The notes under the pieces were generated by a model. That model ran no database searches and was not told the DNA's origin. It saw nothing but the letters and a program-made list of their open reading frames with translations. From Acidobacteriota bacterium (GTDB taxonomy: Bacteria > Acidobacteriota > Vicinamibacteria > Vicinamibacterales > CAVVIG01): a stretch of 64,000 nt of DNA. The position numbers were made by a program, and so were the translations under genes. Position 1 is the stretch's first letter, and every line of letters begins with the position of its first letter. Shown here in pieces: positions 41,300-58,470 of the stretch. Location of the stretch: NCBI GenBank assembly GCA_023265175.1, contig JAHFUI010000005.1:6862-70861 (forward strand), given 5' to 3'.

Positions 41300-41421
41300 A
41301 TTTGGTCATCTGGTTATTTGGTTATCTAATCATTGAAGGAACCCAATGACCAGATAACCAGACAACCAGATAACCAGATAACCAGATAACCAGATAACCA
41401 GATAATCAAATAACCAGATTC
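41300..41421. repeat. Family B octamer hairpin (TGGTTATN x4, loop, AACCAGAT x9-10)
   Basis: Read directly from the sequence. It fills the cupin-start / ptsI-stop gap and uses the same unit as 18793-18897. Confidence 0.9.
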
Positions 41422-41422
41422 A

Positions 41423-43189
41423 CTATTCCCCAGCGTGCGACAGCCGCGCGAGCGCGGAGAACAATTCGCGTTCGATCTCGTCGACGGTCGCCATCCGCAG
41501 AATCCGGCGCGCCATCGCCCGCAGCTCGCCGCTGTGCGCCTCGGCAAGTACCTGCTTCGCGATGGGAATCGCGCCCGGCGTCATGCTGAGCTCCCGCAAC
41601 CCCAGTCCCACGAGCAGCGCCAGCAGCGCCGGGTCTGACGCCATTTCGCCGCACAGCGACACCGGAATCCGGTGACGCGCGGCCGCTCTTCGCACCATCA
41701 CAATCATCCGGAGGATGGCCGGATGCAGCGGCTGGTACAGTCTCGACACGCGCTCGTCGGCGCGGTCGACGGCCAGGCAATACTGAATCAAGTCGTTTGT
41801 GCCGATGGTGAAGAAGTCGACCTCACGCGCGAGGAGGTCGGCCGTGTAGGCGGCGGCCGGCACCTCGATCATCACGCCGATTGGCACCGGTGGCACCGAT
41901 TCGCCGCGTCGCGCGAGCTCGGCGGCGGTCTCGGTCACGAGACGGCGCGCGTCGCGCACCTGCTCAACGCCCGACACGAACGGAAACATGATCCGCAGCG
42001 CACCGTGACCGGCGGCGCGGAGCAAGGCGCGCAATTGCACCTGAAACAGCTCGGGGCGCGAAAGGCTCAGGCGCAAGCCGCGCAGACCCTGCCGGCTGCC
42101 CCGATCTTCTTTCGCCGCCCACGCGCTGACGTCTCTGTTCGCCACGTATGACGCGAGCTGATCTTCGTCGACGTCGAACGTCCGAATCGTGACCGACCCG
42201 GGCGCCATGCCGGCGAGCATCCCCCGGTAGATCTCGTATTGCTGATCTTCGTCGGCGATGTCGCACGCGGCGCTCGTGAAGAGAAACTCGGATCGATACA
42301 GCCCGATGCCCTCGGCGCCGGCGTAACGCGCGGCGGCCAGATCGTCGGGAAACTCGATGTTCGCGTCGAGCCGCACGCGCACTCCGTCGGCCGTCGTCGC
42401 CGGCCGTCGCCGCTCCGCGTCCACGTTGACGGCCGGCCGTCGATCGTCGGCGTGACGCGCGACTCCCGCCAGCACTTCATCGCTCGGATCCACGATCAGC
42501 TCATTGCCGCTGCCATCGACCACCACCAGCTGCCCGGCTTCGATCGATCGGCTCGCGTTGTGCAATCCGACCACGGCCGGCACTTCGAGAGACCGCGCGA
42601 GAATCGCCGTGTGATACGTGCGGCTGCCGGCGTCGGTCGCGAAGCCGCGGACCTTGGTCCAATCGACCTGCGCCGCGAGCGAAGGCGTGAGCTCGTCGGC
42701 GATGAGCACCGACGATTCGTCGAGCTCGCGCAACAGGTCGCGCGGCGTCTCGAGACCCTGCCGGAGATTCATGTTCAGCCGGCCGACCAGATCGGCGATC
42801 TCGCCGCGCCGCTCTCGAAGATACGGATCGGCCACCTCATCGAACACCGCGCTGAGCTCGTGGAACACCTGCTGCACGGCCCATTCGGCGTTGACCCGTT
42901 GGTTGCGGATGATTTCGGCGGCACGAGGAATGACCATCGGGTCGTCGAGCATGAGGAACTGCGCGTCGAACAGCGAGGCCAGCTTGCGGCCGCGGCGCCG
43001 CGCCAGGCTCTCGCGGATGTCGGCCAGCTGCTGCCGCGAGCGGCTCCGGCTCTGCTCCAGACGTGAGATCTCATGCTCCATGCGTCCCGGCGGGATCTGA
43101 TAGCGAAGAACCTGCGCGCGCTGGATCATGATGACCGCGCGCCCGACGACGATGCCGGGAGACACGCCGATGCCGGTCAGGCGCCGCAT
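41423..43189 (-). CDS. ptsI: Phosphoenolpyruvate-protein phosphotransferase (PTS Enzyme I)
   Basis: MRRLTGIGVSPGIVVGRAVI, the active-site region DAGSRTYHTAILARSLEVPAVVG, and a C-terminal PEP-utilising TIM barrel (FFTIGTNDLIQY). Confidence 0.9.
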   Translation of the reverse strand: MRRLTGIGVSPGIVVGRAVIMIQRAQVLRYQIPPGRMEHEISRLEQSRSRSRQQLADIRESLARRRGRKLASLFDAQFLMLDDPMVIPRAAEIIRNQRVNAEWAVQQVFHELSAVFDEVADPYLRERRGEIADLVGRLNMNLRQGLETPRDLLRELDESSVLIADELTPSLAAQVDWTKVRGFATDAGSRTYHTAILARSLEVPAVVGLHNASRSIEAGQLVVVDGSGNELIVDPSDEVLAGVARHADDRRPAVNVDAERRRPATTADGVRVRLDANIEFPDDLAAARYAGAEGIGLYRSEFLFTSAACDIADEDQQYEIYRGMLAGMAPGSVTIRTFDVDEDQLASYVANRDVSAWAAKEDRGSRQGLRGLRLSLSRPELFQVQLRALLRAAGHGALRIMFPFVSGVEQVRDARRLVTETAAELARRGESVPPVPIGVMIEVPAAAYTADLLAREVDFFTIGTNDLIQYCLAVDRADERVSRLYQPLHPAILRMIVMVRRAAARHRIPVSLCGEMASDPALLALLVGLGLRELSMTPGAIPIAKQVLAEAHSGELRAMARRILRMATVDEIERELFSALARLSHAGE

Positions 43190-43458
43190 GCCGTGTCCTC
43201 GCCGAAACCGGATTGCACCAGTGCCGTCAGCGCGTCGACGGCGTCCCGTTCGTCCGCGCCCTCGGCAGTGATGGTGATCGTCGACCCGCAGGCAGCCGCG
43301 AGCAGGAGAATCCCCATGATGCTCTTGCCGTCCATCTGCCGCGCGTCACGCGCCACGCGCACGTGTGACTGAAACCGGGTCGCCAGATGGACGAATTTCG
43401 CCGCCGCGCGCGCGTGCATGCCCAATTGATTGACGACCGTGACGCTCCGCGAGGTCAT
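43177..43458 (-). CDS. ptsH: Phosphocarrier protein HPr
   Basis: 93 aa. His15 in NQLGMHARAAAKF and Ser46 in DGKSIMGIL are both present. Confidence 0.85.
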   Translation of the reverse strand: MTSRSVTVVNQLGMHARAAAKFVHLATRFQSHVRVARDARQMDGKSIMGILLLAAACGSTITITAEGADERDAVDALTALVQSGFGEDTACGA

Positions 43459-43868
43459 GAGCCGGTTCTTTCTCCGCGGAGAAGATCCGACGCCACCCAG
43501 ATCGCGTTCCGGCCATGATCGCGCATCTCGCGGGCGACGCCGAGCAGATCCGACGAGCTCCGCAGGCCGGCAAGCTTGATGAGCATCGGCAGGTTGACGC
43601 CCGTAATCACTTCGACGCGATCCTTCGCCAGGAACGTCATCCCAAGGTTCGACGGCGTGCCGCCGAACATGTCGGTCAACACGAGGACCCCCGCGTCCCC
43701 GTCCACCCGTTCAATCGCCTGGGCGATCTCCTCGCTCGCATCGTTGACATCGTCGTGCCAGCCGATGGAGACCGCCGTGAATCTGGGCAGATCGCCGACG
43801 ATCATTTCGGCGGCATTGACCAGCTCGGTGGCCAGTTGGCCGTGGGTAACCACGACGACCCCTATCAT
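43455..43868 (-). CDS. PTS EIIA component, mannose/fructose family
   Basis: MIGVVVVTHGQLATELVNAAEMIVG (His10 motif) and LVLTDMFGGTPSN. Start taken at ATG 43868; the upstream ORF part lies in a hairpin repeat. Confidence 0.8.
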   Translation of the reverse strand: MIGVVVVTHGQLATELVNAAEMIVGDLPRFTAVSIGWHDDVNDASEEIAQAIERVDGDAGVLVLTDMFGGTPSNLGMTFLAKDRVEVITGVNLPMLIKLAGLRSSSDLLGVAREMRDHGRNAIWVASDLLRGERTGS

Positions 43869-43885
43869 GGCGCGCTCGACGATTG

Positions 43886-43962
43886 AACCACAAAGCACAC
43901 GAAGACCACAAAGAAGCCTGTGTCTGCTCCGCATTCTTTGTGGCCTTTGTGGCCTTCGTGGT
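43886..43962. repeat. Family A hairpin
   Basis: AACCACAAAGCACACGAAGACCACAAAGAAG ... CATTCTTTGTGGCCTTTGTGGCCTTCGTGGTT, located between the EIIA start and the rapZ stop. Confidence 0.85.
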
Positions 43963-44904
43963 TCATGAATGCCCGATGTCCCGGTGTCGGACGCGCACCC
44001 GCACCCCGACATTCGCCAGCGAACGGCGCAGGCGCTCCGCGATCATGACCGATCGGTGCCGGCCGCCCGTGCAGCCAATCGCAATCGTCAGATAGCTCTT
44101 CCCTTCGGCGACATAGTGCGGCACGAGGTACCGCAGATACTCCTCGAGCCGGTCGATGAACTCGCGCGTCGCCGCGTCGCGCTCCATGAACGCCGCCACG
44201 GCGCGGTCACGCCCCGTACGGCGACGCAGCGCGGGGACGAAGTGCGGATTGGGCAGGCACCGCGCGTCGAAGACCAGGTCGGCATCGACGGGAACTCCAT
44301 GCTTGTACCCGAAGCTGAGGAGCGTGATCACAAGCCGTCCGCGCGAGCCGCGCGACAACGCCATGAAGGACTGGCGCAGCTCGTGGACCGTCATGTCGGA
44401 GGTATCGATGATCTGGTCGGCGAGCTGCCGCACGGGCATAATGCGCGCGCGTTCTTCGCGGATGCCTTCGCGTACCGACCGGTCCGGCGCGAGCGGATGG
44501 GGACGCCGGGTCTCGCTGAAACGCCGGACGAGCGCGGCTGTGCTGGCTTCGAGAAAGATCAGGACTGGATTGAGCCCGCCCGTCTTGCGCAAGCGGTTGA
44601 AGACTTTCGGGAACTGCGACAGAAAATTCCGTTCCCGCACGTCGACGACGATGGCGACCTTCTCGATGCCGTCACCGCGCAGCGAGAGCTGGGCCAGCGT
44701 TGGGATCAGCGTCGTGGGCAGGTTGTCGACGCAAAAATATCCGAGGTCTTCCAGCGCGCGGATGGCCTGGGACTTCCCGGAGCCCGACAAACCGGTCAGT
44801 ACGATGAACGGTTGCCGGGCTTTCGGGCCTTTCACGGCCACCCTGCCCTTCCAGTTGGTCTTTCTACGATTCCCGCGGGGCACGGCTTTCGTCCGGGGCG
44901 TCAC
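43963..44904 (-). CDS. rapZ: RNase adapter / nucleotide-binding protein RapZ (YvcJ family)
   Basis: FIVLTGLSGSGKSQAIRALEDLGYFCVDNLP and C-terminal IAIGCTGGRHRSV. The GTG start overlaps the hprK stop (GTGA). Confidence 0.85.
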   Translation of the reverse strand: MTPRTKAVPRGNRRKTNWKGRVAVKGPKARQPFIVLTGLSGSGKSQAIRALEDLGYFCVDNLPTTLIPTLAQLSLRGDGIEKVAIVVDVRERNFLSQFPKVFNRLRKTGGLNPVLIFLEASTAALVRRFSETRRPHPLAPDRSVREGIREERARIMPVRQLADQIIDTSDMTVHELRQSFMALSRGSRGRLVITLLSFGYKHGVPVDADLVFDARCLPNPHFVPALRRRTGRDRAVAAFMERDAATREFIDRLEEYLRYLVPHYVAEGKSYLTIAIGCTGGRHRSVMIAERLRRSLANVGVRVRVRHRDIGHS

Positions 44905-45989
44905 CTCTGTCCCCCGGGCTCGAGATCTTCCTCTTCTTCATCCGGTGACGGCACACGCGTATCGTCCCTCGGCACAGCTCGCGCTTCGAGGGCCTCAAAG
45001 CGTTCTGAGCCTGTCGAAGGGCGGGACAACCCTGAGCCCGTCGAGGGATCCCGCAGCGTCCGCTCCAGCCTGGCGGCGAGCTCGCGCGCGGCATGATGCC
45101 CGCGCGATCGCACCAGCTGGTTCCGCGCGGCGACTTCGACGAGGATGGCGACACTTCGTCCCGGCGCCACCGGCATGCGGATCAGCGGCACGCGCAGTCC
45201 GAGAATCTCGTGGAACTCATCGTCCAGTCCGAGGCGTTCGTATTCCCGTGTGGGATCCCACCGCTCGAGCTGTACCACGAGCTCCACGCGCTTGCTGGAG
45301 CGCGTCGAGGCGATGCCGAACAGATCCTTCACGTTGATCAGGCCGAGCCCGCGCAGCTCCATGTGATGTTGCGTGAGCTCCGGACAGGTCCCAATCAGGA
45401 TCGACTCGGCTCGGCGCCGAATGTCGACCGTGTCGTCGGCGACCAGCCGATGGCCGCGGACGATGAGGTCGAGCGCACACTCGCTCTTGCCGATGCCACT
45501 TTCACCCACGATGAGCACGCCGAGGCCAAGAATGTCCATCAGGACGGCGTGCGTCACCGTGTGTTCGGCCAGCCAGTCCTCGAGGATCGTCGTGAGCTTG
45601 GCGATCGCGGTGGGCGTGGCGATCGACGTCTTGAGCAGCGGAAGCTTGGCGCGCTCGGCCTCGAGGACGACTTCCGCCGGCGGGGTGAAGCCGCCGGTGA
45701 TGAGGACGCAGGGAAAATCGAGCGTGAGCGCGAGGCGAAGCGAGTTGATGCGCGCCGAGGTTTCCAGGCTTTCGAGGTAGCGAATCTCGCTTTCGCCGAA
45801 AATCAGCACGCGTCCGGGCTTCAAATATTCATGAAAGCCCGCCAGCGCAAGGCCGGTCTTCTGGATGTAGGGGCTCGTGATGCGTCGGTCGAGCCCGGAA
45901 GCGCCGGCGAGCACCTCGAAGGGCAGACCGAAGACCTCGGGCCGGCTGCCCAGCAGCGCGCCGACGGTGACGCCTGGACTCGGAGACAT
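44901..45989 (-). CDS. hprK: HPr kinase/phosphorylase
   Basis: Walker A in GVLIVGESGIGKSECALDLIVRGHRLVADD, and LRGLGLINVKDLFG. It has a roughly 55-aa disordered acidic C-terminal extension. Confidence 0.9.
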   Translation of the reverse strand: MSPSPGVTVGALLGSRPEVFGLPFEVLAGASGLDRRITSPYIQKTGLALAGFHEYLKPGRVLIFGESEIRYLESLETSARINSLRLALTLDFPCVLITGGFTPPAEVVLEAERAKLPLLKTSIATPTAIAKLTTILEDWLAEHTVTHAVLMDILGLGVLIVGESGIGKSECALDLIVRGHRLVADDTVDIRRRAESILIGTCPELTQHHMELRGLGLINVKDLFGIASTRSSKRVELVVQLERWDPTREYERLGLDDEFHEILGLRVPLIRMPVAPGRSVAILVEVAARNQLVRSRGHHAARELAARLERTLRDPSTGSGLSRPSTGSERFEALEARAVPRDDTRVPSPDEEEEDLEPGGQR

Positions 45990-45992
45990 ATG

Positions 45993-46075
45993 TCAGTCGA
46001 CAGTCGTCAGTCGACAGTCGTCAGTCGACAGTCGTCGGTCGACAGTCGTCGGTCGACAGTCGTTAGTCGACAGCG
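45993..46075. repeat. Tandem array of six 14-nt units (TCAGTCGACAGTCG)
   Basis: Direct reading: three exact units, two TCGG variants and one TTAG variant. Each unit contains the GTCGAC palindrome. Confidence 0.9.
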
Positions 46076-46103
46076 CAGGGCACGATCTTTAGACCCTACC
46101 CTG
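46076..46103. repeat. REP-like hairpin, degenerate copy of the element at 11-40
   Basis: CAGGGCACGATCTTTAGACCCTACCCTG compared with CAGGGCACGGTCTTTAGACCGTGCCCTG at the window start. Confidence 0.6.
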
Positions 46104-46109
46104 TCGCTT

Positions 46110-46676
46110 TCACGCTTCGGTCTCAATCAGCGTCAGCTCGCCGTTCTGCTGGCGGTAAAGGACGCTGACCGACGCACGCTCGGGATCGTGGAAGATGACG
46201 CAGCCCTCGCGCCGCGCGTCCAACTCGCGCGCCGCCTCGGTCACCGACATCGACTTGATCGCCTGACGCGACGAGCGAAAAATCCGAGGCATGCGCGGTG
46301 TCTCGCGCGGGGTCGGGCGCGCCGGCGCCGCGCCCGGCGCGAGAACCTCACCCGCCGCGGCGGCAGTCCTGACGCCGCGGCGCTTCCGCTCCTGCCACTT
46401 CCCTTTCACCTTCTGCGCCTGCTGCGAGATCTTCTCGATGGCCTGGGTCAACGAGGTCTCCCACGCGGTCGACGTGCTGACGCCGTGCAGGAACTTTTCG
46501 CCGCGGGCGTGCAGCGTGATCTCGGCGCGCAGACGATACTTCTCGCGCGTCAGCACCGCCTGCGCAGAGACGGCGCTGTCATTCAGCATCCGCTCCAGCT
46601 TGGCGAGTTTGGCGTCGACGAGGCGCCGCAGGGTGGGGGTGATGTCAACGTGTCGGCCGGTCAATTCGAGTCGCAT
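46110..46676 (-). CDS. hpf: Ribosome hibernation promoting factor (long HPF/RaiA family)
   Basis: MRLELTGRHVDITPTLRRLVDAKLAKLERML...AEITLHARGEKFLHG, plus a C-terminal domain MSVTEAARELDARREGCVIFHDPERASVSVLYRQQNGELTLIE. The upstream part of ORF 46110..47525 is antisense of rpoN and was rejected. Confidence 0.85.
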   Translation of the reverse strand: MRLELTGRHVDITPTLRRLVDAKLAKLERMLNDSAVSAQAVLTREKYRLRAEITLHARGEKFLHGVSTSTAWETSLTQAIEKISQQAQKVKGKWQERKRRGVRTAAAAGEVLAPGAAPARPTPRETPRMPRIFRSSRQAIKSMSVTEAARELDARREGCVIFHDPERASVSVLYRQQNGELTLIETEA

Positions 46677-46681
46677 CTGGT

Positions 46682-48112: not shown

Positions 48113-48231
48113 GGAGCGGTTGCGCGTCAGCTAAGTTGTTGTCGCGACGACGGTTGCACGAAGCGAACGCGGCCGCCTCAATCAAGAGAATGTGACACCG
48201 CGCTTCAGCGATGCAATTCCCAGGCCTCATT

Positions 48232-48957
48232 TTAGTCCAAGCGGAACTCAGTCCCCAAATAAATCCGCCGCACGTCATCGTCGGCGGCGAGGGTGTCGGG
48301 CGTGCCGCTTTTGAAGATCCCTCCGTCGTGCACGATGTAGGCGCGGTCCGTGATGCGCAGCGTCTCGCGGACGTTGTGGTCGGTGACGAGCACGCCGATG
48401 CCGCGAGCCTTGAGGTGAAAGATGATCTTCTGGATATCAGTGAGCGCGATGGGGTCGATGCCGGCGAACGGCTCGTCGAGCAGGATGAACTTCGGCGAGA
48501 TGACCAGCGCGCGCGTGATCTCGACGCGGCGCCGCTCGCCGCCCGACAACGTATACGCCGGGGCGCGCGCGAGCGGTGTCAGGTTCAGCTCGGCCAGCAG
48601 ATCGCGCAGGCGCACTCGACGCGTCGCCCCGTCGAGGCCCATCGTCTCGAGGATGGCGAGAATGTTCTGCTCGACCGTCAGACCGCGGAAGATCGACGGT
48701 TCCTGCGGCAGGTACCCGATCCCCTTGCGCGCGCGGACGTACATTGGATCGTCGGTGACGTCGCGTCCATCGAGGATCACGCGGCCGGCATCCGGCGCCG
48801 TGAGACCGACGGTCATGTAGAAGGTGGTGGTCTTGCCGGCGCCATTGGGGCCGAGCAGCCCGACGATCTCGCCGGACGCCACATCGAGGTTGACGCCTCG
48901 AACGACCGTGCGCCCGCCGTACGATTTGGTGAGGCCCTCGGTGCGGAGGGTCGACAT
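48232..48957 (-). CDS. lptB: LPS export ABC transporter ATP-binding protein LptB
   Basis: [48 protein letters not shown], the [11 protein letters not shown] signature, and its position upstream of rpoN. Confidence 0.9.
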
Positions 48958-48975
48958 CACATCTTCTCGAAGCAC

Positions 48976-49056
48976 TCACCACCAAGGACACGAAGGACAC
49001 AAAGGAAAGAACTTACAGCTCTTCGCCGTTGTGTCCATCGTGTTCTTTGTGGTGGT
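48976..49056. repeat. Family A hairpin
   Basis: TCACCACCAAGGACACGAAGGACACAAAGG ... CCGTTGTGTCCATCGTGTTCTTTGTGGTGG, located between the lptB start and the lptC/A-like stop. Confidence 0.85.
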
Positions 49057-49093: not shown

Positions 49094-51193
49094 TCACGAA
49101 CACTTCCCGCTGCCTTTCGTTTGCGTGCGAATCTGGCCGCCGCCATCGAGGTTGACCGTATCGGTCGACTGGACAAACGTCAGTTTCTGCCCCACGCTTT
49201 CGCCGCCGCACTGGTCGACGATCGCGACCGGCGCGCCGGTGATGACGTAGGTGTCATTCGAGGTCGTGTAGGTCAATCGCGCTCCGGTCGTTTTCCGGTT
49301 CTGCTCGCGAAGCGTCAGTGCGCCGTACGCTTCGGCGCGATCGATCTCATCGCCCGCAGGCTTCAGGTACAGCTCGATCTTGTCGGAGATCATGTCACCC
49401 TGCGGGCCGCTGAGGTGCGCCTCGCCGGTGTAGGTGGCGCGGCGCAGCGATTCTTCGTACTTGAAGTCTTCCGATTTGCCAATCGACCGGACGCGGTCCC
49501 GCGGGGTTTTCGTCTTGTCGCCCTGCACCAGCATCGTGCTCGTCAGCGCGGAGCCGGACGCGACCAGGTCGCCATTCTTGTTGTCGATGACGATCGTCGC
49601 CCCCGTAATCGTCGTCTCCGTCTGCCAGAGCCTGGCGTTTCCTGAATACGACGCACGAGACACGTCGCCGTCGTAGTCCAGCTCCTCGGCGACGATGTTC
49701 ACCGGCTTGTCGCCCTTGAGCATGGAGGGCATCTTCGTGTCCTTCGACTTGGGGTCCTTCTTGGGCGGCTGCAGGGCGCTGGCGACCTCGCCGCGCGCCA
49801 TGAGTTTCGGCCCCGCGAGCGTGACATCCATCCGCGCCGAATCGACCCAGATGTGCTCGGTGGTCATATGGGGGCGAGGCGCCCCCGGCTCGGTCCCGCT
49901 CAATTCGAGCGTGCCCGTGTCGAGCACGTATCGCGCCAGCGCGGCGACGGCAAAGAAGCCGCCTTCGGAAGCAAAGCGTGCGTTGCGCGCGAATGTCGCT
50001 TCAGCAATTGAGCTCATGCCCGGCTTCAGCACGACGTCCATCGTGCCGGCTTTGGCCACGCGGTCCACCGAACCGCCCTTCTCGCGAAAGTCGACCTCTC
50101 CGGTGAACCGGGCATTCGTCAGTCCCTTCTTGGCTTCACCGTGTGCGTCGAGGCTCGCCGCCTTGATCGTGCGCGCCGCGGCGCCGGGTTCTGCGGGAAA
50201 GGTCAATTGCACGGCTTCACGGCCGAGGAGCGCGACCGGTGTGGTGCCGTCAGGCGCGAGCGCGATGTCCAGCGTGGTGGCCGCAATCTGGCGGCCGGGC
50301 GAGCCTTTCTGCCCCGCGATTTGCAGCACGGCCTCGCCGACGACGATCGCGTGCTCGAGTGTTTCTCCATCAGACGCGTATTTCAGCTCCATCTCGTGGC
50401 CCGTCAGTGACTGCAGCGTGCCGGGATCTGCATTGGATCCGGTGATCCTCGCGTTGCCCTGCAGCTCGACCCGCTCGACGCGCTCCTCATCGTCGCTGAG
50501 ATGAGCGACGCCGCTGTCGGCCTCGACGACCTGGCCAGCGCGCAATGACTTGATGCCGCGTTCGAAGCGGATGAATTTGTCGCGCCGCGCCACGATCGCG
50601 CTCGGCGACGTGAGATCGGTGGCGCCGTCATTCCTGTCGGTTTCAATGCGGACGTGAGCTTGATCGAGGATGACGAGGACATCCTGGTTCTTGTCGTAGG
50701 TCATGCCCACGCCCGAACCGGAGAGGCGCCTGCGCGAAAACTCCACCGGACCCGGCGCACGGGCCGTCCCGTCCGCCTCTGTGTAGGTGGCGTGTTCGGT
50801 GCGCACGATCAAGCCGTCGCTCGCCATCAACGTGACGGCGCCGTTGATCGTGATCGCCGATTCATTCTGACCGACAACGCCCTCTTTGCCGGTCACGGTA
50901 AACGTCCGGCTGCCGTGACGCTCCGTGCTGATGATTTTGACGCCCACGAGGCGCGTCGAGCCGTCTTTATACGTGTCCTGTTTGTCGTAGGCGATGCTCA
51001 CGTCCTCGTGAGCGCCGTTGAACCGAAACGTCTGGCCGGTGGTGCTTTCGACGACCGAGTCGGGATCGGTTCGACCGGCCGGCACGGGCGGTGCCGCCGG
51101 CCCGCGGTGCTTGAAGGCAAACACCAGCATAACCGCGAACGCGACGGCGAACACGGCGACAAGCAGGCGCGCTCTCCGCTGCCACTTGGTCAT
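49094..51193 (-). CDS. Large LptC/LptA-like protein (TM anchor followed by multiple OstA-type beta-jellyroll modules)
   Basis: ATG 51193 gives MTKWQRRARLLVAVFAVAFAVMLVFAF. Repeated OstA_N-like segments include AEELDYDGDVSRASYSGNARLWQTETTITGATIVID and FKYEESLRRATYTGEAHLSGPQGDMISDKIELY...AEAYGALTL. It occupies the lptC-lptA position upstream of lptB. The upstream ORF extension lies in a repeat arm. Confidence 0.65.
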   Translation of the reverse strand: MTKWQRRARLLVAVFAVAFAVMLVFAFKHRGPAAPPVPAGRTDPDSVVESTTGQTFRFNGAHEDVSIAYDKQDTYKDGSTRLVGVKIISTERHGSRTFTVTGKEGVVGQNESAITINGAVTLMASDGLIVRTEHATYTEADGTARAPGPVEFSRRRLSGSGVGMTYDKNQDVLVILDQAHVRIETDRNDGATDLTSPSAIVARRDKFIRFERGIKSLRAGQVVEADSGVAHLSDDEERVERVELQGNARITGSNADPGTLQSLTGHEMELKYASDGETLEHAIVVGEAVLQIAGQKGSPGRQIAATTLDIALAPDGTTPVALLGREAVQLTFPAEPGAAARTIKAASLDAHGEAKKGLTNARFTGEVDFREKGGSVDRVAKAGTMDVVLKPGMSSIAEATFARNARFASEGGFFAVAALARYVLDTGTLELSGTEPGAPRPHMTTEHIWVDSARMDVTLAGPKLMARGEVASALQPPKKDPKSKDTKMPSMLKGDKPVNIVAEELDYDGDVSRASYSGNARLWQTETTITGATIVIDNKNGDLVASGSALTSTMLVQGDKTKTPRDRVRSIGKSEDFKYEESLRRATYTGEAHLSGPQGDMISDKIELYLKPAGDEIDRAEAYGALTLREQNRKTTGARLTYTTSNDTYVITGAPVAIVDQCGGESVGQKLTFVQSTDTVNLDGGGQIRTQTKGSGKCS

Positions 51194-51202
51194 CGGAATC
51201 CG

Positions 51203-51374
51203 TGAGATCTGAGGATGTAAGGAGCTGAGGATGTAAGGATGTGAGAATGTGAGGATGTAAAGCGGTGAGGATGTGAGGACGTAGCGACGCAGACGTGCCG
51301 GCACATTCTCAGATCCTCACTTCCTAACATTCTCACTTCTTCACTTCTTCACTTCCTCACTTCCTCACTTCTCT
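51203..51374. repeat. Family C octamer hairpin (GTGAGGAT/GTAAGGAG units, loop, CACTTCCT units)
   Basis: Left arm 51203-51280, loop 51281-51303, right arm 51304-51374. The right arm contains the recJ stop codon and its last 8 sense codons. Confidence 0.9.
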
Positions 51375-53076
51375 TGAGGCCTGCAAGGGTCAGCTCGACG
51401 TATGTCTCCCCATTGTATTGGTTCTGCTCGAGGGAGAAGGCGACGTCCAGGGCGGCCTTGTGCTCGGTGAGATAGTCGTGCTGTTCGGCGGCGCGCCAGG
51501 CGACCGCGCGGAAGATGCGGCCCTCCTGCTTGAGGGCCATCTTGAGGTGCCGTTCCTTCAGCTTTCGCGGGCCATCGACGATCTCCACGCGCCGCGCCGC
51601 GAACACCGGGCGCGGATTGCCAGCCCCAAACGGCGCCAACGATGCGACCCCCGCGGCGACGCCACCGGTGATGCTCCGAAACATGAGGTCGCCGTCGACG
51701 CGCAGCCGCGGCATGAGGTCGTCCGGGCCAAGTGTTTCGTCCGCCACGTCGTTGACGGCCGCGCGTAGCTCATTGATTCGCCCGGCGTCCAGCGTGATCC
51801 CCGCCGCCTGCCGGTGGCCACCGAACCGGGTGAGCAGATGCGCCGAGCGCTCGAGCGCCGCCAGCATGTCGAAGCGGTGGATGCTGCGGCACGACCCATG
51901 CGCGACGCCGTCTTCGATCGACAAGACGATCGCCGGCCGGTGGAACGCGTCCACCAGCTTCGACGCGACGATGCCGACGACCCCGCGATGCCACCCTTCG
52001 CCGGCAACCACGAGAACGGACCGCGCGCCGATGTCCGGATCGGTCGTCACGATCTTCTTCGCGGCCGCGAGCGCCGCCGCTTCCTCTTCCTGCCGGCGCA
52101 CGTTCTCGCCGTCGAGTTGCAGCGCGAGGGCCCGCACCTGGTCGCCCATGGCTTCATCGCTCGCCAGCAACAAGCGCGTGGCGATGTCCGGCGTGCTCAT
52201 GCGGCCGGCGGCGTTGACTCGCGGGGCGAGCATGAACGAGATGTGGTAACTGTCGATGGTCTTCCCGCTCAGCCCTGAGATGTCGAGCAGCGCGCGCAGG
52301 CCGATTTTATGAGGGCCTCGCGACAGCAGGTCCAGTCCCAGCTTCGCGATCACGCGGTTCTCGCCGACGAGCGGCACGACGTCGGCGAGCGTGCCGATGG
52401 CGGCGATCTTGATGAAACCGGGCAGCCAGCTCTCGCGCCCCGCCGCGTGGCAGAGCGCCTGGACCAATTTCAGCGCGACACCCACGCCCGCGAGGTACTT
52501 GTCGGGATACGCGCAGTCCGTGCGCTTGGGATTGATGACGGCGAGCGCGGCGGGCAGCTCCGCGTCGGGCTCGTGGTGGTCGGTGATGATCAGATCCACT
52601 CCGAGCCCACGCGCGCGTCGCGCCGCCTCGGCGCCGCGAATGCCGCAGTCCACCGACACGATCAGCGCCACGCCGGCCGCGTGCAGCCGCTCGATCGCCA
52701 CCGGCTGCAGCCCGTAGCCGTCGCGCAACCGCTCGGGAATGAAGTGCACGACGTCGGCGCCGAGCAATTCCAGCGCGCGGCGGAGGATGACGGTCGACGT
52801 GACGCCGTCCACATCGTAGTCGCCGTGGATGGCAATCCGCTCGCGCCGCGCGATGGCGCCGAAGATCCGATCGACCGCGATCCGCATGTCGGCGAGCAAC
52901 ATCGGATCGTGCAGATGATCGAGCGACGGATTCAGGAAACGGTTCGCGAGCTCAGGATCGCCGAGCCCGCGCTGGCAGAGCAGCCGCGCGACAACCGGTT
53001 CCAATCCGAGCGCCAAGGCAAGCGTCGCCGAGGCGGCTTCGTCGCACGATTGGTGGTCCCAGCGGGGAGGGATCAC
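51349..53076 (-). CDS. recJ: Single-stranded-DNA-specific exonuclease RecJ
   Basis: DHH family motifs IAIHGDYDVDGVTS, VSVDCG and ITDHHEP, with DHHA1 GGHRQAAG. Confidence 0.9.
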   Translation of the reverse strand: MIPPRWDHQSCDEAASATLALALGLEPVVARLLCQRGLGDPELANRFLNPSLDHLHDPMLLADMRIAVDRIFGAIARRERIAIHGDYDVDGVTSTVILRRALELLGADVVHFIPERLRDGYGLQPVAIERLHAAGVALIVSVDCGIRGAEAARRARGLGVDLIITDHHEPDAELPAALAVINPKRTDCAYPDKYLAGVGVALKLVQALCHAAGRESWLPGFIKIAAIGTLADVVPLVGENRVIAKLGLDLLSRGPHKIGLRALLDISGLSGKTIDSYHISFMLAPRVNAAGRMSTPDIATRLLLASDEAMGDQVRALALQLDGENVRRQEEEAAALAAAKKIVTTDPDIGARSVLVVAGEGWHRGVVGIVASKLVDAFHRPAIVLSIEDGVAHGSCRSIHRFDMLAALERSAHLLTRFGGHRQAAGITLDAGRINELRAAVNDVADETLGPDDLMPRLRVDGDLMFRSITGGVAAGVASLAPFGAGNPRPVFAARRVEIVDGPRKLKERHLKMALKQEGRIFRAVAWRAAEQHDYLTEHKAALDVAFSLEQNQYNGETYVELTLAGLKRSEEVRK

Positions 53077-53121
53077 GCAGTCCTCAGCCGATGGCGCGCA
53101 CGTTGCTTCAGCAACACTGAA

Positions 53122-53150
53122 TCACCACAAAGGACACCAAGGACACAAAG
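53122..53150. repeat. Family A hairpin, left arm, separated from its right arm by the GxxExxY gene
   Basis: TCACCACAAAGGACACCAAGGACACAAAG is the near-perfect reverse complement of 53563-53591. Confidence 0.85.
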
Positions 53151-53161
53151 CTTAAGCCCGT

Positions 53162-53551
53162 ATGCGTCCGAACGAAACCAGCCACGCCGTAATCGCTGCT
53201 GCGATGAACGTACACACCGCGATCGGGGCAGGCGCCCTTGAAAGCACGTATGACGCCTGCATGTTCTACGAGCTCAATGCCGCCGGATTGCATGTTGAAC
53301 ACCAGGTCCGTCTACCGCTCGTCTACAAGCAGATTCAACTACCGGTCGCCTATCGGGTCGACTTCATTGTCGAAAACTGCCTCATCGTCGAGATCAAGTG
53401 TGTGGAGAAACTGCTATCTGTCCATCTCGCCCAAGTGCTGTCGTACCTAAGACTGAGCGACCTTCGGCTCGGGCTGCTGATCAACTTCAACGTGCCGCAT
53501 CTGCGCCAAGGAATCCGCCGCGTGATCAACGGTCCAGAGTCCGAGCTGTAG
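53162..53551 (+). CDS. GxxExxY protein (PD-(D/E)xK nuclease superfamily, PDDEXK_3-like)
   Basis: 129 aa. GALESTY matches GxxExxY and DFIVENCLIVEIK carries the D...ExK motif. The gene has lower GC than its surroundings and is the only plus-strand gene in a 19-kb minus-strand array. Confidence 0.85.
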   Translation: MRPNETSHAVIAAAMNVHTAIGAGALESTYDACMFYELNAAGLHVEHQVRLPLVYKQIQLPVAYRVDFIVENCLIVEIKCVEKLLSVHLAQVLSYLRLSDLRLGLLINFNVPHLRQGIRRVINGPESEL

Positions 53552-53562
53552 AAGGTATAGCC

Positions 53563-53591
53563 CTTTGTGTCCCTGGTGTCCTTTGTGGTGG
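53563..53591. repeat. Family A hairpin, right arm
   Basis: CTTTGTGTCCCTGGTGTCCTTTGTGGTGG. A further degenerate piece, GAACCACCGAAGACACGAAGG, follows at 53601-53621. Confidence 0.85.
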
Positions 53592-53655
53592 CTCAGCGAT
53601 GAACCACCGAAGACACGAAGGCGGTCGGCGTCTTCTGCTTCCCCTGCGTCCTCCG

Positions 53656-54624
53656 CTACTCGGCGTCAACGAAATCGATTCCGATCTTCCCCATCCCCCG
53701 AAACTTCTCGTACCGAAGCCGCAGCCGGGTCTCGCGGTCGAGGCTGGTGACCTCTCCCAGCACGCGCTCCAGCACATCGTCCATGAGGCGCGCGGCGGCG
53801 GCGGGATCGGTGTGCGCCCCGCCGACCGGTTCGGGCACGATCTCGTCGATGATGCCGGCCTTGAGCAGATCGGGCGCGGTGAGCTTCAGCGCCTCGGCCG
53901 CGTCGATCTTCTTGGACGCGTCCCGCCACAAGATGGCCGCGCACCCTTCGGGCGGGATGACGCTGTAGATCGCGAACTCCTGCATCAGCACGCGATCGCC
54001 GACGGCGATGCCGAGCGCGCCGCCGCTGCCGCCTTCGCCGCTGACGAGCACCACAATCGACGTGTCGAGCACCATCATCTCGCGCAGGTTGACCGCGATC
54101 GCCTCGGCCACGCCGCGCTCTTCGGACTCGATCCCGGGGTACGCGGCCGGTGTGTCGACGAAGATGATGATCGGCCGGCCGAATTTCTCGGCCAGGCGCA
54201 TCGCGCGCAAGGCCTTCCGGTACCCCTCCGGTCGCGCGTAACCGAAGTTCCGGTAGATCTTCTCCTTCGTGTCGCCGCCCTTGACGTGGCCGACGAGCAG
54301 GACCGGCTGCCCCTTGTACTCGGCAAAGCCGGTCATGATCGCGTGATCGTCGGCAAACCGGCGGTCACCGTGGATCTCGACGAACCCGGTGAACAACAGC
54401 TTGACGAAGTCCTCGAGAGACGGTCTGGCGGGATGGCGGGCGACGAGCACACGTTGCCACGGCGTCAGCGAAGCATAGAGCGCGGCGCGCACCGTCTGGA
54501 TCCTGCGTTGGAGCGCCTCGATCTGCCGGTCGCGCGCATCGGTCGGCGGCAGCTGATTGAGGGCGTCGATCTCCCTCAGGACCGCCGCGATCGGTTCCTC
54601 GAATTCCAGCGTTTCCGGCGCCAT
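53656..54624 (-). CDS. accA: Acetyl-CoA carboxylase carboxyltransferase subunit alpha
   Basis: LTPWQRVLVARHPARPS...FVDTPAAYPGIESEERGVAEAIA...SGEGGSGGAL, canonical for AccA. Confidence 0.95.
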   Translation of the reverse strand: MAPETLEFEEPIAAVLREIDALNQLPPTDARDRQIEALQRRIQTVRAALYASLTPWQRVLVARHPARPSLEDFVKLLFTGFVEIHGDRRFADDHAIMTGFAEYKGQPVLLVGHVKGGDTKEKIYRNFGYARPEGYRKALRAMRLAEKFGRPIIIFVDTPAAYPGIESEERGVAEAIAVNLREMMVLDTSIVVLVSGEGGSGGALGIAVGDRVLMQEFAIYSVIPPEGCAAILWRDASKKIDAAEALKLTAPDLLKAGIIDEIVPEPVGGAHTDPAAAARLMDDVLERVLGEVTSLDRETRLRLRYEKFRGMGKIGIDFVDAE

Positions 54625-54644
54625 AGGTTCTTCAATGGCTCCTG

Positions 54645-54707
54645 ATCACGAAGGCACGAAGGTACACGAAAAAGAAATGCTTCTTCGTGCTTTCGTGTTT
54701 TCGTGGC
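54645..54707. repeat. Family A variant hairpin (CACGAAGG units)
   Basis: ATCACGAAGGCACGAAGGTACACGAAAAAG-AAATG-CTTCTTCGTGCTTTCGTGTTTTCGTGGC, located between the accA start and the dnaE stop. Confidence 0.85.
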
Positions 54708-54729
54708 AGGCAAGCGCGGCTGGTCGACC

Positions 54730-57700
54730 TCATCGCAGCGATACGGCCCCCTGGCCGACAATCTGCTCGACCTCCGCGATCAACGTCGACGACGGCCGCA
54801 CGCGGATGTGCGCCGGCAGGTCCGCCTTCACGCGCAGCGGCTTGGGTGTCGACCCCAGCTCGATCTCCAACGACACGCGGCGATCGCCGCGATGCCTGGA
54901 GAAGACCTCACCCAGTGCCTCGAAGACACGGCGACCGGCGGGCATTCTGACCCGAATCGCCACTTCCCGGGCGAGGCGTTCGCGTACGCTGTCTATGCCG
55001 GCGATCTCCGACGCCAGTATCCGCGCCGACTCATCGTCGCGTTCGAGTTTCCCGCGCACGAGCACCATCGTGCCGGTTTCGAGCAGGGCGACGCTGCGCT
55101 GATACGTCTCGGGAAACGCAATCACTTCGACGCCGCCTTGTGAATCCTCCAGCGTGAACACCGCCATGCGATCGCCTTTGCGCGTCTTCAACTGGCGGCA
55201 GGCGGCGACGATGCCGCCGATGCTGGTGTCGGGTTCGATCGGTTTCGGGCCGCCAGCCCCCCACGCGTCGGTGCGCGAGCCGTTGACTGGCACATCGGCG
55301 AGCTCGCCGGTCGACCGCGCACCGAGCGCCTTGAGCTCGGCCGTGTATCGGTCCACGGGATGGCCGCTCCAGTACAACCCCAGCGTTTCTTTCTCGAAGG
55401 CGAGCTGTTCGGTCTCGGTCCACGGCTTAACGTCCGGTAGCGGCACGCTCTTAAGACCGCGCCTCACGGAGGCAGGGTCGGCGTCCTCAGCCGCGTTGTC
55501 GGCATCGCCAAAAGCACTGAACAGCTGCGCCTGCCCTTCGTTCTTGTCCCGTTGATGGCGCGCGCCGTGCTCGCAGGCCGCGTCGATCGCCGCAAAGAGT
55601 CTGGCGCGCAGCGCTGCCCCGGACAACGCTGGCGAGGACGGTCTTGAGCCCGTCCCGTTTCCTGCGTCAGCTGTCGCACCGAGCGAATCGAACGCGCCGG
55701 CCTTCGTCAGGCTTTCGAACACCCGCTTGTTGACGAGGCGGAGATCCACATCCTCGCACAGGGCGTGCAGCGACGCGATCCGTCCCTGCTTTTTGCGTAC
55801 CTCGATGAGCGATTCGACGGCGCCTTCCCCGACGTTCTTGATGGCGGTCAACCCGAACCGCACGCCTTTTCCCGATTCCACCGTGAAGCGGAGCTCGCTT
55901 TCATTGATGTCGGCCGCCAGCAGCGGGATGCCGCGCTCCCGGCACTCGCCGAGGTACAGGGCGAGCTTGTCCGTGTTCTGCGCCTCGATGGTCAGCAGCG
56001 CCGCGGCAAAGTGCCAGGGGTAGTTCGCCTTCAGATAGGCGGTCTGGTACGCCAGGAGCGCGTACGTGGTGGAGTGCGCCTTCGGAAACCCGTAGCCGGC
56101 GAAATGCTCCATCAGCTCGAAGATGCGCGCCGCCTTCTTCTCGTTGACGCCGCGCTTCCTCGCGCCCTCGAGAAACTTGCCGCGCTGGGCCTGCATGGCC
56201 TCGACTTTCTTCTTCCCCATCGCATAACGGAGGCTGTCGGCTTCGCCCAGCGTGAACCCCGCAATCACGTTCGAGATGCGCATCACCTGTTCCTGATAGG
56301 CGATCACGCCGTAGGTCTCGGCCAGGATCGGCTCGAGCTCGGGCAGCTCGTACTTGACGTCGGTCTTCCCCTGCTTGCGCGCGACGAAGTCGTCCACCAT
56401 GCCGCTGCGGAGTGGGCCGGGGCGGTACAGCGCGTTCAACGCGATCAGGTCGTCGAGCCGCTGCGGCTTGGCCTTGCGCAGGATGTCGCGCATGCCGCTC
56501 GACTCGAACTGGAAGATGCCGTAGGTCTGGGCCTCCTGGAAGATCTGATACGTCTTCGGATCGTCGAGCGGCACGTGATCGATGTCGAGCCGTTCGCCCG
56601 TCGTCCGCTCGATCTCCTTGACCGCATCGTCGATGAGCGTCAGCGTGCTCAGCCCCAGGAAATCCATTTTCAGGAGGCCGACGCGATCGATCTCCTTCAT
56701 CGACCACTGGGTGACGATCTCGTCGTGCGCGCCTTTGTAGAGTGGCGCGTACTCCGTGATGGCCCTCGGCGCGATGACGACGCCCGCGGCGTGCACCGAG
56801 GCGTGGCGGGTCATCCCTTCAAGACGGCGCGCGACGCTCAAGAGCTCCCTGACCTTCGGGTCGTTCTGCTCCATCTGGCGCAGCGGCTCGCTCTCCTCGA
56901 GTGCCTTGTCGAGCGTCATGTCGAGCGCGGGAGGAATCAGTTTCGCGACCTTGTCGACATCGGCGTAGGGCATCTCGAGCACACGGCCGACGTCTCGCAC
57001 GACGGCCTTCGCCTTCATCGTCCCGAACGTGATGATCTGGGCCACTTTGTCGCGGCCGTACTTCGCCGTGACGTACTCGATGACTTCGCCGCGACGCCGC
57101 TCGCAGAAATCGATGTCGATGTCCGGCAGTGACACGCGCTCGGGGTTCAGGAAGCGTTCGAAGATGAGATTGAAGTCCAGCGGATCGACGTCGGTGATGC
57201 GCAGACAATAGGCGACCAGACTGCCGGCGGCCGAACCGCGACCCGGGCCGACGGGAATCGCCCGCTCCCGCGCGTAGCGGATGAAGTCCCACACGATCAA
57301 GAAGTACCCTGGGTACTTCATCTGCTTGATCATGTCGATCTCGTACGAGAGCCGGCGCTCGTACTCGTCGATCGTGTGGCGCAGCGCGCCCGATGCCGCC
57401 AGTTGTTGCAGCCGCGTCAGACGCTCCTTGAATCCTTCCCGGACCCTATGCTCGAAGTAGTCGTCGAGGGTGAAGCCCGCCGGCACGTCGAAATTCGGCA
57501 GGTAGTTCTCGCCCTGCGGGAGCACGACGTTGCAGCGTTCGGCGATCCGCACCGTATTGGCGAGCGCGTCAGGGAAGTCCTTGAAGACCTCCGCCATCTC
57601 CTCGGCGGTCTTCAGGAAGAACTGTTTCGCGTCGTAGCGCAGGCGTTTGGGATCGCTGAACGCCTTCCCCGTGCCGATGCATAACAGCACGTCGTGAGGG

Positions 57701-58347
57701 TGCGCGTCGGCCTCACGCAGGTAATGCACGTCGTTCGTGCAAATCAGCGGCAGGCCAAGGTCGCGCGCGATCGCCGGCAGCCCGTTGTTGACGACCCGCT
57801 GATCCTCGATGCCGTGCCATTGCATCTCGAGGAAGAAGTTGCCCGGTCCCAGGATGTCGCGATACGCCGCCGCCGCTTCGATCGCTCTGTTGCGCTGCTG
57901 ATGCGAGAGGCCTTCGGCCACTTCGCCTTTCAGGCAACTGCTCGATCCGATCAGCCCCTTCGAATACTGCGCGAGCAATTCCTTGTCGATGCGCGGCTTG
58001 TAGTAGAAGCCCTCGGTGTAACCGGCCGAGACCAGCTTGATCAGGTTGTGGTATCCCTCGTTGGTTTCCGCCAGGAGCACCAGATGGTTCGCCGTCTCAC
58101 CGGGATTCCCGTTCTTGGCATGCCGGCTGCCGGGCGCCACGTACACTTCGCAGCCGAGAATCGGTTTCACACCACGCTGCCGCGCGTGGTCGTGAAAGAT
58201 CACCGACGAGAACAGGTTCCCGTGCTCGGTCACGGCGATGGCCGGCATCTTCAACTTCGCCGCATGGTCGAGCAGCTCATCAATCCGGCACGCCCCGTCG
58301 AGGAGCGAATATTCGGTGTGTAGGTGCAGGTGGACGAATTCAGACAT
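54730..58347 (-). CDS. dnaE: DNA polymerase III subunit alpha
   Basis: 1205 aa. MSEFVHLHLHTEYSLLDGA is the PHP domain, followed by the polymerase core, an OB fold and a C-terminal tail. Confidence 0.95.
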   Translation of the reverse strand: MSEFVHLHLHTEYSLLDGACRIDELLDHAAKLKMPAIAVTEHGNLFSSVIFHDHARQRGVKPILGCEVYVAPGSRHAKNGNPGETANHLVLLAETNEGYHNLIKLVSAGYTEGFYYKPRIDKELLAQYSKGLIGSSSCLKGEVAEGLSHQQRNRAIEAAAAYRDILGPGNFFLEMQWHGIEDQRVVNNGLPAIARDLGLPLICTNDVHYLREADAHPHDVLLCIGTGKAFSDPKRLRYDAKQFFLKTAEEMAEVFKDFPDALANTVRIAERCNVVLPQGENYLPNFDVPAGFTLDDYFEHRVREGFKERLTRLQQLAASGALRHTIDEYERRLSYEIDMIKQMKYPGYFLIVWDFIRYARERAIPVGPGRGSAAGSLVAYCLRITDVDPLDFNLIFERFLNPERVSLPDIDIDFCERRRGEVIEYVTAKYGRDKVAQIITFGTMKAKAVVRDVGRVLEMPYADVDKVAKLIPPALDMTLDKALEESEPLRQMEQNDPKVRELLSVARRLEGMTRHASVHAAGVVIAPRAITEYAPLYKGAHDEIVTQWSMKEIDRVGLLKMDFLGLSTLTLIDDAVKEIERTTGERLDIDHVPLDDPKTYQIFQEAQTYGIFQFESSGMRDILRKAKPQRLDDLIALNALYRPGPLRSGMVDDFVARKQGKTDVKYELPELEPILAETYGVIAYQEQVMRISNVIAGFTLGEADSLRYAMGKKKVEAMQAQRGKFLEGARKRGVNEKKAARIFELMEHFAGYGFPKAHSTTYALLAYQTAYLKANYPWHFAAALLTIEAQNTDKLALYLGECRERGIPLLAADINESELRFTVESGKGVRFGLTAIKNVGEGAVESLIEVRKKQGRIASLHALCEDVDLRLVNKRVFESLTKAGAFDSLGATADAGNGTGSRPSSPALSGAALRARLFAAIDAACEHGARHQRDKNEGQAQLFSAFGDADNAAEDADPASVRRGLKSVPLPDVKPWTETEQLAFEKETLGLYWSGHPVDRYTAELKALGARSTGELADVPVNGSRTDAWGAGGPKPIEPDTSIGGIVAACRQLKTRKGDRMAVFTLEDSQGGVEVIAFPETYQRSVALLETGTMVLVRGKLERDDESARILASEIAGIDSVRERLAREVAIRVRMPAGRRVFEALGEVFSRHRGDRRVSLEIELGSTPKPLRVKADLPAHIRVRPSSTLIAEVEQIVGQGAVSLR

Positions 58348-58358
58348 GGACCACCACT

Positions 58359-58470
58359 GGAAAGTGAGGAAGTCAGGAAGTGAGGAAGTAAGGAAGTACT
58401 GCTCGGACTGCCAACAGGCGCGTCAGGTCCTCACTTCCTAACTTCCTCACTTCCTCACTTCCTAACATCT
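58359..58470. repeat. Family C octamer hairpin (GTGAGGAA units, loop, TTCCTCAC units)
   Basis: Left arm 58359-58398, loop 58399-58427, right arm 58428-58470. It lies between the dnaE start and the guaA stop. Confidence 0.9.

Follow-up and report, generated by a model that had tools for sequence, protein, structure and literature searches.

Tandem-unit hairpins akin to rRNA intervening sequences in the operon spacers of a Vicinamibacterales bacterium

Introduction

In Coxiella burnetii the 23S rRNA intervening sequence (IVS) has a terminal stem of 28 bp interrupted by one mismatch and one bulge, carries the heptamer GACAGAT in three tandem copies, a count that is strain-variable, holds an S23p open reading frame (ORF), is cut by RNase III in mid-stem, and is possibly selfish in origin (PMC4990558). 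In Xanthomonas campestris and X. citri, GGGAATC heptamers form convergent arrays, of which about 70 pairs were reported; these are 89-93% intergenic, variable in length and transcribed, and they form G-quadruplexes in vitro (Rehm et al. 2015, PMC4692102). Single direct heptamer arrays are known from the cyanobacterial short tandemly repeated repetitive (STRR) sequences and from the TAACTGA sequences of Beggiatoaceae, where 1 of 170 sets is inverted and where, in Beggiatoa, orientation relative to start codons matters (PMC4679880). Here we describe related elements in a 64,000-nt stretch of DNA from an Acidobacteriota bacterium of the order Vicinamibacterales (assembly GCA_023265175.1, contig JAHFUI010000005.1, positions 6,862 to 70,861 of the forward strand; hereafter the window), in which many spacers between protein-coding genes hold a hairpin with arms made of complementary arrays of short tandem units.

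The class as such is known: it includes intervening sequences and paired heptamer arrays, and the window elements are a variant of it. The initial annotation of this DNA, made from the sequence alone, knew of no description of such elements; partial ones exist, namely those of the Xanthomonas paired heptamers (PMC4692102) and the Coxiella IVS (PMC4990558). What is new is the abundance of the elements in operon spacers within a major soil lineage, the presence of several unit families side by side, and the association of one unit family with a nuclease gene cassette that is common to several phyla. In the library of literature searched, we found no work that connects these observations, links the GxxExxY gene family to tandem-unit arms, or describes such elements in Acidobacteriota.

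Results

Hairpin elements occupy the gene spacers of the window

Elements were found at eight of the nine non-overlapping junctions of a minus-strand gene array that extends from cupin/ptsI to dnaE/guaA (hereafter the region), one of the eight being a single-arm array. All eight junctions that the initial annotation had listed carry the structures it described. Its rule that the element-free junctions are those with overlapping or abutting genes fails at lptB/rpoN, where a gap of 119 nt (48113-48231) is also free of elements. Using Tandem Repeats Finder (TRF), an inverted-repeat finder and direct reading of the sequence, we curated a window list of 13 paired elements and one single-arm array with unit periods of 7-9 nt; five of the elements lie outside the region. 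The proposed plan of n units, a loop and n complementary units stands as far as the tandem-unit architecture is concerned, but the unit numbers of the two arms are often unequal (see the elements at 41299 and 51202 below), and the array in the hprK/hpf gap is unpaired. When all 64 kb were scanned for gapless hairpins, eight long ones were returned, seven of them above the cut-off for tandem-unit periodicity, with the eighth, the family A hairpin at 43884-43965, slightly under it.

The predicted RNA folds of the elements have energies of -28 to -86 kcal/mol and stems of 25-70 bp. Fold z-scores of the hairpins range from -7.1 to -9.8, with none of 200 shuffled sequences being equally stable. The GC content of the elements and stems is 36-52%, compared to 65% for the window, in agreement with the earlier description of them as AT-richer than their surroundings. 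Element bases are 97% non-coding and make up 26.5% of all non-coding bases in the window, whose non-coding share is 7.2%. Among gaps of at least 50 nt, 9 of 10 in the region contain an element, compared to 5 of 20 elsewhere (Fisher p = 0.0014; the junction with the cargo gene counts as two gaps). The position of the elements is strongly biased. The placement is tight as well: the elements begin a few bases from a stop codon and extend to 5-12 nt ahead of the next start codon or Shine-Dalgarno sequence.

The elements are also present in independently assembled DNA. Contigs from three other sequencing samples are either 99.8-100% identical to the window across the elements or broken exactly at them; the 43884-43965 element is identical in contigs L162 and L164, and the 54647-54707 element in contig L001. 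Since independent contigs reproduce the elements, they are not artefacts of one assembly. Exact-protein look-ups for strain-level variants returned either contigs 99.8-100% identical to the window or nothing. Long-read genome bins contain elements like these as well, as do isolate plasmids of other phyla. Short-read contigs (L001, L163, L164 and contigs of ERZ27297709) end precisely at the repeated arms, and the elements are therefore a likely cause of the fragmentation of Vicinamibacterales genome bins.

Unit families and their positions

At least five unrelated units coexist in the window, where family A has seven loci and families B and C have two each. The general units of family A are CACRAAGGA/TCCTTYGTG, as seen at 43884-43965 and 48977-49054, and its termini are conserved (CCAC...GTGG). 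The hairpin in the rapZ/EIIA gap (43884-43965) is made of three CACRAAGNN units and their complement (z = -7.6), and the rapZ stop codon falls within its outer arm. A second family A hairpin fills the lptC-A/lptB gap (48977-49054; z = -7.3); the related loci L003 and L004 have an A-type hairpin of CACGGAGGA units at this junction. In the dnaE/accA gap, a family A variant hairpin of CACGAAGG units (54647-54707; z = -7.1) stops 5 nt short of the accA Shine-Dalgarno sequence and has an orthologous element in L003.

Family C has the general units GTGAGGAW/TCCTCACT and is represented at 51202-51373 and 58360-58478. The first of these lies in the recJ/lptC-A gap, consists of GTGAGGAT x9.9 opposite TCCTCACT x7.2, and has a predicted folding energy of -86 kcal/mol. 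About eight last codons of recJ (LKRSEEVRK*, window 51352-51378) are encoded by its right-arm units; recJ has thus lost its original 3' end and stop codon to the element. The second extends from the guaA stop codon to the dnaE start codon, with AAGTGAGG x4.5 opposite CCTCACTT x4.5 (z = -9.8), and is orthologous to a hairpin of GAAGTAGG units in the related locus L020.

The gap from the ptsI stop codon to the cupin Shine-Dalgarno sequence is occupied by a family B hairpin (41299-41419; z = -7.8) with about 3.4 units of TGGTTATC versus 8.9 of GATAACCA. The hpf/hprK gap contains the single-arm tandem array (45992-46073; z = -4.6), in which a 14-mer, GTCAGTCGACAGTC, composed of the 7-mers GTCGACA and GTCGTCA, is repeated 5.9 times; no complementary partner array was found for it. 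Adjoining this array is a small hairpin (46074-46108; CAGGG...CTTTAGACCCTACCCTG) that resembles the repetitive extragenic palindromes (REPs). Non-periodic hairpins with a CTTTAG/CTAAAG core, such as GGGTCTTTAGACCC and GGACTAAAGTCC, are recurrent in Vicinamibacterales gaps, their sites being window 46074-46108, L019 9868-9994, L003 2226-2322 and L004 19667-19717.

Outside the region, two family A hairpins (1590-1660 and 27331-27416) are located on the promoter side, in gaps between divergently transcribed genes, and the second family B hairpin (18791-18902) is located in a convergent gap. The remaining two are a family D hairpin with units GGTAATYG/CGATTACC (15723-15869) and a heptamer hairpin with units TGCAARA/TTTGCAT (23095-23149). 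The window gave no matches in an Rfam gathering scan or a tRNA scan. No rRNA was found by the Rfam scan, and every element lies between protein-coding genes, none of them in 23S helix 9, 25 or 45.

Family A arms accompany a GxxExxY nuclease gene

At the recJ/accA junction the initial annotation had noted "cargo" within a family A element. Cargo is indeed present, and we identified it as a GxxExxY gene; that it belongs to a family A cassette found across phyla had been missed. The gene (53162-53551, plus strand) is antisense to accA and recJ and matches TIGR04256 and Pfam PDDEXK_3 (E = 6e-41). Its 129-aa product scores 139 bits against TIGR04256, for which the cut-off is 35, and 137 bits against PDDEXK_3 (PF13366), and the residues D67, E77 and K79 of the D...E.K nuclease motif are invariant across phyla. 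PDDEXK_3 is listed as "function unknown" (PMC3424549), and a literature search on GxxExxY and PDDEXK_3 gave only "function unknown". The left arm of the cassette (53112-53150), with the sequence CACCAC AAAGGACAC CAAGGACAC AAAG, is separated by 412 nt of cargo from the right arm (53563-53601, CTTTGTGTCCCTGGTGTCCTTTGTGGTG), to which it is 87% complementary. Immediately outside the right arm, at 53602-53640, is a piece with units of the A variant (CACCGAAGACACGAAGG ... GTCTTC), which may be a remnant of an older hairpin.

A GxxExxY gene is present at the accA/recJ junction of six related genome loci, in one of them frameshifted, and of 62 soil contigs. In the frameshifted case (L007 2728-3067) the arms around the broken gene are intact, which suggests that arms can outlive the gene. 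A metagenome scan yielded 80 GxxExxY homologues with 55-84% identity. Inverted CAC-NN-AGGA arrays bracket about 72 of the 77 homologues that have enough flanking sequence, in the form [CTC]CACCAC-(RRAGGACAC)n ... (GTGTCCTYY)n-GTGGTG[GAG]. Because 62 of the 80 soil loci represent the same accA/recJ junction in different Vicinamibacterales, these are orthologues rather than independent insertions; homologues occur in at least five genomic contexts besides accA/recJ.

To assess pairing, we aligned the two arms of 36 cassettes and counted pairs. Across the 36 cassettes, 89.5% of the arm cells are paired, compared to 38-53% in slid registers. Both sides have changed in 19 of 34 pairs, and 135 cells are compensatory, where shuffles give 54 ± 6 (0 of 500). 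In the middle unit, the first variable base (columns 20 and 59 of alignment A2) is mismatched in 21 of the 36 cassettes, giving a recurrent mid-stem mismatch.

The association is found in several phyla. In the AT-rich genome of Bacteroides finegoldii a GxxExxY gene has the arms TTCACCACAGAGGACGCAGAGGACACGGAGG and CTCTGTGACCTCTGTGTCCTCTGTGGTGAA, in Bernardetia the gene is flanked by degenerate family A arms, and in Gemmatirosa the gene is directly followed on its 3' side by an A-type hairpin. Family A arms thus surround GxxExxY genes in two phyla, Acidobacteriota and Bacteroidota; in Gemmatimonadota the gene adjoins an A-type hairpin. The window contains one full family A cassette and six cargo-less A-type hairpins, the CACGAAGG variant included. 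As family A arms accompany GxxExxY across phyla, these six are copies of the cassette arms. Each genome has its own A variant, uniform across its loci (CACAAAGGA in the window, CACGGAGGA in L003), which points to exchange between loci. The nuclease at the shared accA/recJ site is 35-86% identical between genomes, versus about 80% for its neighbors. A comparison of the cargo-less A hairpin loops with the GxxExxY gene for deletion remnants yielded a single 8-nt match (GAGCTGTA, from the loop at 48977) besides a weak motif, AAGAAC, that loops share, too little to decide the matter.

GxxExxY genes were also seen in tight gaps between housekeeping genes of other phyla, namely fabD/fabG, radA/FAD-dependent protein and ade/mannose-1-phosphate guanylyltransferase (L168, a Sphingomonas parapaucimobilis plasmid; L165; L167).

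Elements turn over rapidly among relatives

The genes of the region, named by NCBIfam and Pfam, encode a cupin-like protein, ptsI, ptsH, EIIA-Man, rapZ, hprK, hpf, rpoN, lptB, a fused lptC-lptA, recJ, accA, dnaE and guaA. The nearest relatives of accA, with 83% identity, belong to the Vicinamibacterales of Acidobacteriota subdivision 6, and the gene order from dnaE to ptsI is kept in about 20 species-level genomes. The LptC and LptA domains (TIGR04409, residues 47-219; TIGR03002, residues 611-724) are located in a single ORF of about 700 aa (49094-51304, minus strand), and this fusion is kept throughout the Vicinamibacterales loci.

Most relatives of the same gene order have gaps of 0-40 nt where the window has 80-170 nt. 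Where a relative does have an element, its unit usually differs from that of the window; units found in relatives include TTGGTCG, GGTGGGGCA, TTGGGTGC, GATTGCC, GCTCAKG, GAAGTAGG and AACGTTCGACA. As these units are often unrelated, the elements appear to be gained, lost and replaced. The guaA/dnaE junction exists in seven states among the Vicinamibacterales relatives: overlapping stop and start codons (L006), a plain 50-nt spacer (L002, L005), a single-arm GACTGGN array (L008), a one-unit palindrome similar to family C (L004), a hairpin orthologous to the family C hairpin of the window with drifted units (L020), and two hairpins of unrelated units (L014 and L017). Across the Vicinamibacterales, the full hairpins at this junction are built of four unrelated units. 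These many states, together with the unequal arms that slippage predicts, support the proposal of the initial annotation that a common process generates the elements from unrelated units. At three junctions (dnaE/accA, lptC-A/lptB and guaA/dnaE) elements are kept in two or three species, and in such orthologous elements the arms are conserved and the loops are not.

The density of periodic hairpins per 10 kb is 1.1 in the window, 0.16 in related Vicinamibacterales loci, 0.34 in other Acidobacteriota and 0.01 in other phyla (878 kb of accA neighborhoods), where the long hairpins are classic terminators with a GC stem and a T-run. Taken together, the conserved gene order, the small gaps of relatives and the contrast in density indicate that the elements are lineage-enriched, dispensable and subject to fast turnover. 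Among the 13 long hairpins of the 878-kb control, the only one with repeated short units has units of the CACGAAT type (ACCACGAATGACACGAAT...ATTCGTG...) and lies at L045 12286-12365, in a bin labelled Pseudomonadota that may be mis-assigned. Its periodicity of 0.54 is under the cut-off of 0.6, and hence the single periodic match counted for the control may be another locus.

Other small genes are enclosed by tandem-unit arms

Genes of about 125 aa that match TIGR02436 (S23p, a four-helix bundle) are located inside inverted arrays of unrelated heptamers in loci L105 (AAATTGC) and L053 (GTTGTCG). A tblastn search of plasmids revealed further S23p genes within tandem-unit arms, in Nostoc (AGTCAGGA), Leptolyngbya (GGGGAGA), Riemerella (AAGGTTYA) and Stanieria (GGCAGAA). 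The S23p gene in 23S helix 45 of Azospirillum lipoferum, a classical IVS, has arms of tandem GACRGAG units.

Around some S23p and GxxExxY genes the tandem units are direct repeats instead of inverted ones, as observed in L176 (Gemmatirosa; CTCCTGCC), L175 (Nostoc PCC 7120; ACTTCAA and CTGCCCT) and L169 (Prevotella; ACAAATMG). The stem-forming arrangement is thus not universal.

Discussion

We consider it moderately probable that the elements are lineage-wide, dispensable palindromic intergenic repeats of the IVS type, with arms that are complementary arrays of 7-9 nt units. In the model that we propose, replication slippage would add or remove units within one arm, and the arms would stay complementary through copying templated inside the hairpin, through selection on pairing, or through the two together. 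A short palindrome could in this way grow into a stem of 25-70 bp while its unit sequence drifts or is replaced, and copies of one family would spread between loci by recombination or by some kind of mobility. A transcript of either strand should form an extended double-stranded stem, mostly of A-U/G-C pairs and interrupted periodically by mismatches. On the model of rRNA IVS, RNase III would cut the transcribed stem, thereby splitting polycistronic transcripts at the junction, and the flanking messages could change in stability as a result. The initial annotation had considered an RNase barrier; a role as a target of RNase III cleavage is the plausible form of that idea, again judging from the rRNA elements. 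For the host the elements are probably neutral or mildly modulatory, and they would persist because they are confined to the short stretch between one stop codon and the ribosome-binding site that follows.

Several points weigh against this explanation. RNase III cleavage is argued from analogy with rRNA IVS. Folding showed no consistent difference between the strands, both being equally good, so that selection on RNA structure is inseparable from copying of arms at the DNA level; hairpin-templated gene conversion could likewise yield the covariation of the cassette arms without selection on structure. Moreover, the covariation comes mostly from one orthologous locus, the accA/recJ junction to which 62 of the 80 soil contigs belong. 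Slippage alone leaves the presence of family A at seven loci in 64 kb unexplained, and it does not account for the genome-specific A variants at different loci. No cargo form of families B, C or D was found, and the density of elements in the window is far above that in its relatives.

A bolder idea is that the hairpins, the 23S IVS, the STRR arrays and the Xanthomonas pairs are all one widespread class of mobile stem-loop cassette, whose complete copies would hold a small gene. The nuclease or an S23p/Avd-like product would then cut or recognize its own hairpin or cruciform arms, homing with the repeated arms as homology would copy the cassette into empty hairpins, and cargo-less hairpins would be either targets or deletion products. 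This fits the CAC-NN-AGGA arms with GxxExxY in three phyla, the genome-specific A variant, and a nuclease that is far more divergent than its neighbors. We regard it as possible and rather unlikely.

That the elements are selected intercistronic punctuation, which as factor-independent terminators, attenuators or barriers to 3'-exonucleases would set how strongly neighboring genes are expressed relative to each other, is doubtful, although their exact placement from stop codon to ribosome-binding site and their very stable stems would suit such a function. A consensus scan for terminators and promoters found in the region no convincing canonical terminators, so another structure might serve in their place, and the dnaE/accA, lptC-A/lptB and guaA/dnaE elements are retained in two or three species. 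However, a T/U tract follows none of the stems, the elements at 1590 and 27331 lie between divergently transcribed genes, and most relatives of identical gene order have no element and gaps near zero. The unit families at one junction are also unrelated between species, and the rewritten last codons of recJ look like an insertion accident rather than design. A terminator role is therefore unlikely, and the common terminator or insulator function that the initial annotation had put forward is not borne out.

Similarly improbable is that the elements are MITEs (transposable elements of the miniature inverted-repeat type) or REP-like sequences moved in trans by a transposase encoded elsewhere, for example one of the RAYT or IS200/IS605 type with recognition of DNA hairpins. 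Such an origin would be consistent with the occurrence of one family at several loci, the variable presence among species, the confinement to intergenic DNA, and the conserved CCAC...GTGG termini of family A. Yet loops and interiors are unrelated among copies of a family, and unit numbers vary from copy to copy and also from arm to arm within a copy. At the compared junctions, where the divergence of the relatives limits the test, target-site duplications were not visible, and the window has no transposase. The only cargo genes found encode a nuclease of 129 aa and a helical-bundle protein of 125 aa, and neither is a known transposase.

A role at the DNA level, as binding sites for nucleoid or regulatory proteins or as cruciform or G-quadruplex structures that affect replication or supercoiling, is very unlikely. 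The symmetric folding of both strands and the regular 7-9 nt period would agree with it, as would the G-quadruplexes that Xanthomonas GGGAATC arrays form in vitro (PMC4692102). Against this, the units of the families are unrelated and hence provide no single binding motif, families A to E have no G run of three or more in their units, and the presence of the elements is not conserved among relatives. Assembly artefacts, suggested by the tendency of short-read assemblers to mis-join at repeats and by the breaks of this organism's contigs at the elements, can be practically dismissed, as the elements recur at 99.8-100% identity in contigs from three other samples and comparable ones exist in long-read bins and isolate plasmids of other phyla.

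Whichever way they arise, the elements account for a quarter of the window's non-coding DNA, have altered at least one gene end, that of recJ, and break short-read assemblies of a dominant soil lineage. By the rRNA analogy, RNase III sites would fall between essential genes such as dnaE, accA, recJ and lpt. To our knowledge, the origin of rRNA IVS and the roles of the S23p and GxxExxY proteins have been an open question since about 1990. An IVS-like architecture that is abundant outside rRNA, occurs with and without cargo, and has covarying arms offers a tractable system for studying both the spread of such elements and the action of the small proteins.

Compared with the described systems, the window elements share with the 23S IVS of Coxiella, Leptospira and Azospirillum the terminal inverted repeats, the long stem and a loop able to hold a small ORF. 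As in the Coxiella IVS, the stems are at least 25 bp long and have tandem short units in their arms (TRF period 7-9, both arms), and the recurrent mid-stem mismatch of the GxxExxY cassettes recalls the mismatch in the Coxiella stem. The S23p genes outside rRNA (L105, L053, Nostoc, Riemerella) have tandem-unit arms like those of the window elements. Unlike the 23S IVS, the window elements are located in spacers of protein genes and most have no ORF; their sole cargo is GxxExxY rather than S23p, which was found only at other loci. Excision by RNase III has been demonstrated for the 23S IVS, whereas for the window elements it is proposed by analogy.

With the Xanthomonas GGGAATC pairs, the elements have in common two convergent tandem arrays able to form a stem-loop, an intergenic position, a GC-rich host, and lengths that differ between related genomes; in Xanthomonas the type of an array, single or pair, is kept. 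Xanthomonas has one G-rich unit per genome, whereas the window has at least five unrelated ones, and the Xanthomonas work drew no link to a cargo gene. Intergenic tandem heptamers of variable copy number are shared with STRR and TAACTGA, and cyanobacterial S23p genes are flanked by such heptamers; those arrays are mostly single and direct, whereas the window elements are mostly paired inverted arms. Like REPs, their composites (BIMEs) and MITEs, the window elements are short multi-copy intergenic palindromes of variable presence. REPs are 20-40 nt long, are fixed in sequence, have a GTAG head and are accompanied by a RAYT, and MITEs have a conserved interior and target-site duplications. In contrast, the arms of the window elements are tandem arrays of variable length instead of a fixed palindrome, and their interior is not conserved. 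From intrinsic terminators, with their GC stem and T/U run, they differ in having stems of 36-52% GC and no T-run, and in their architecture they stand closest to the intervening sequences and the paired heptamer arrays, of which they are a variant.

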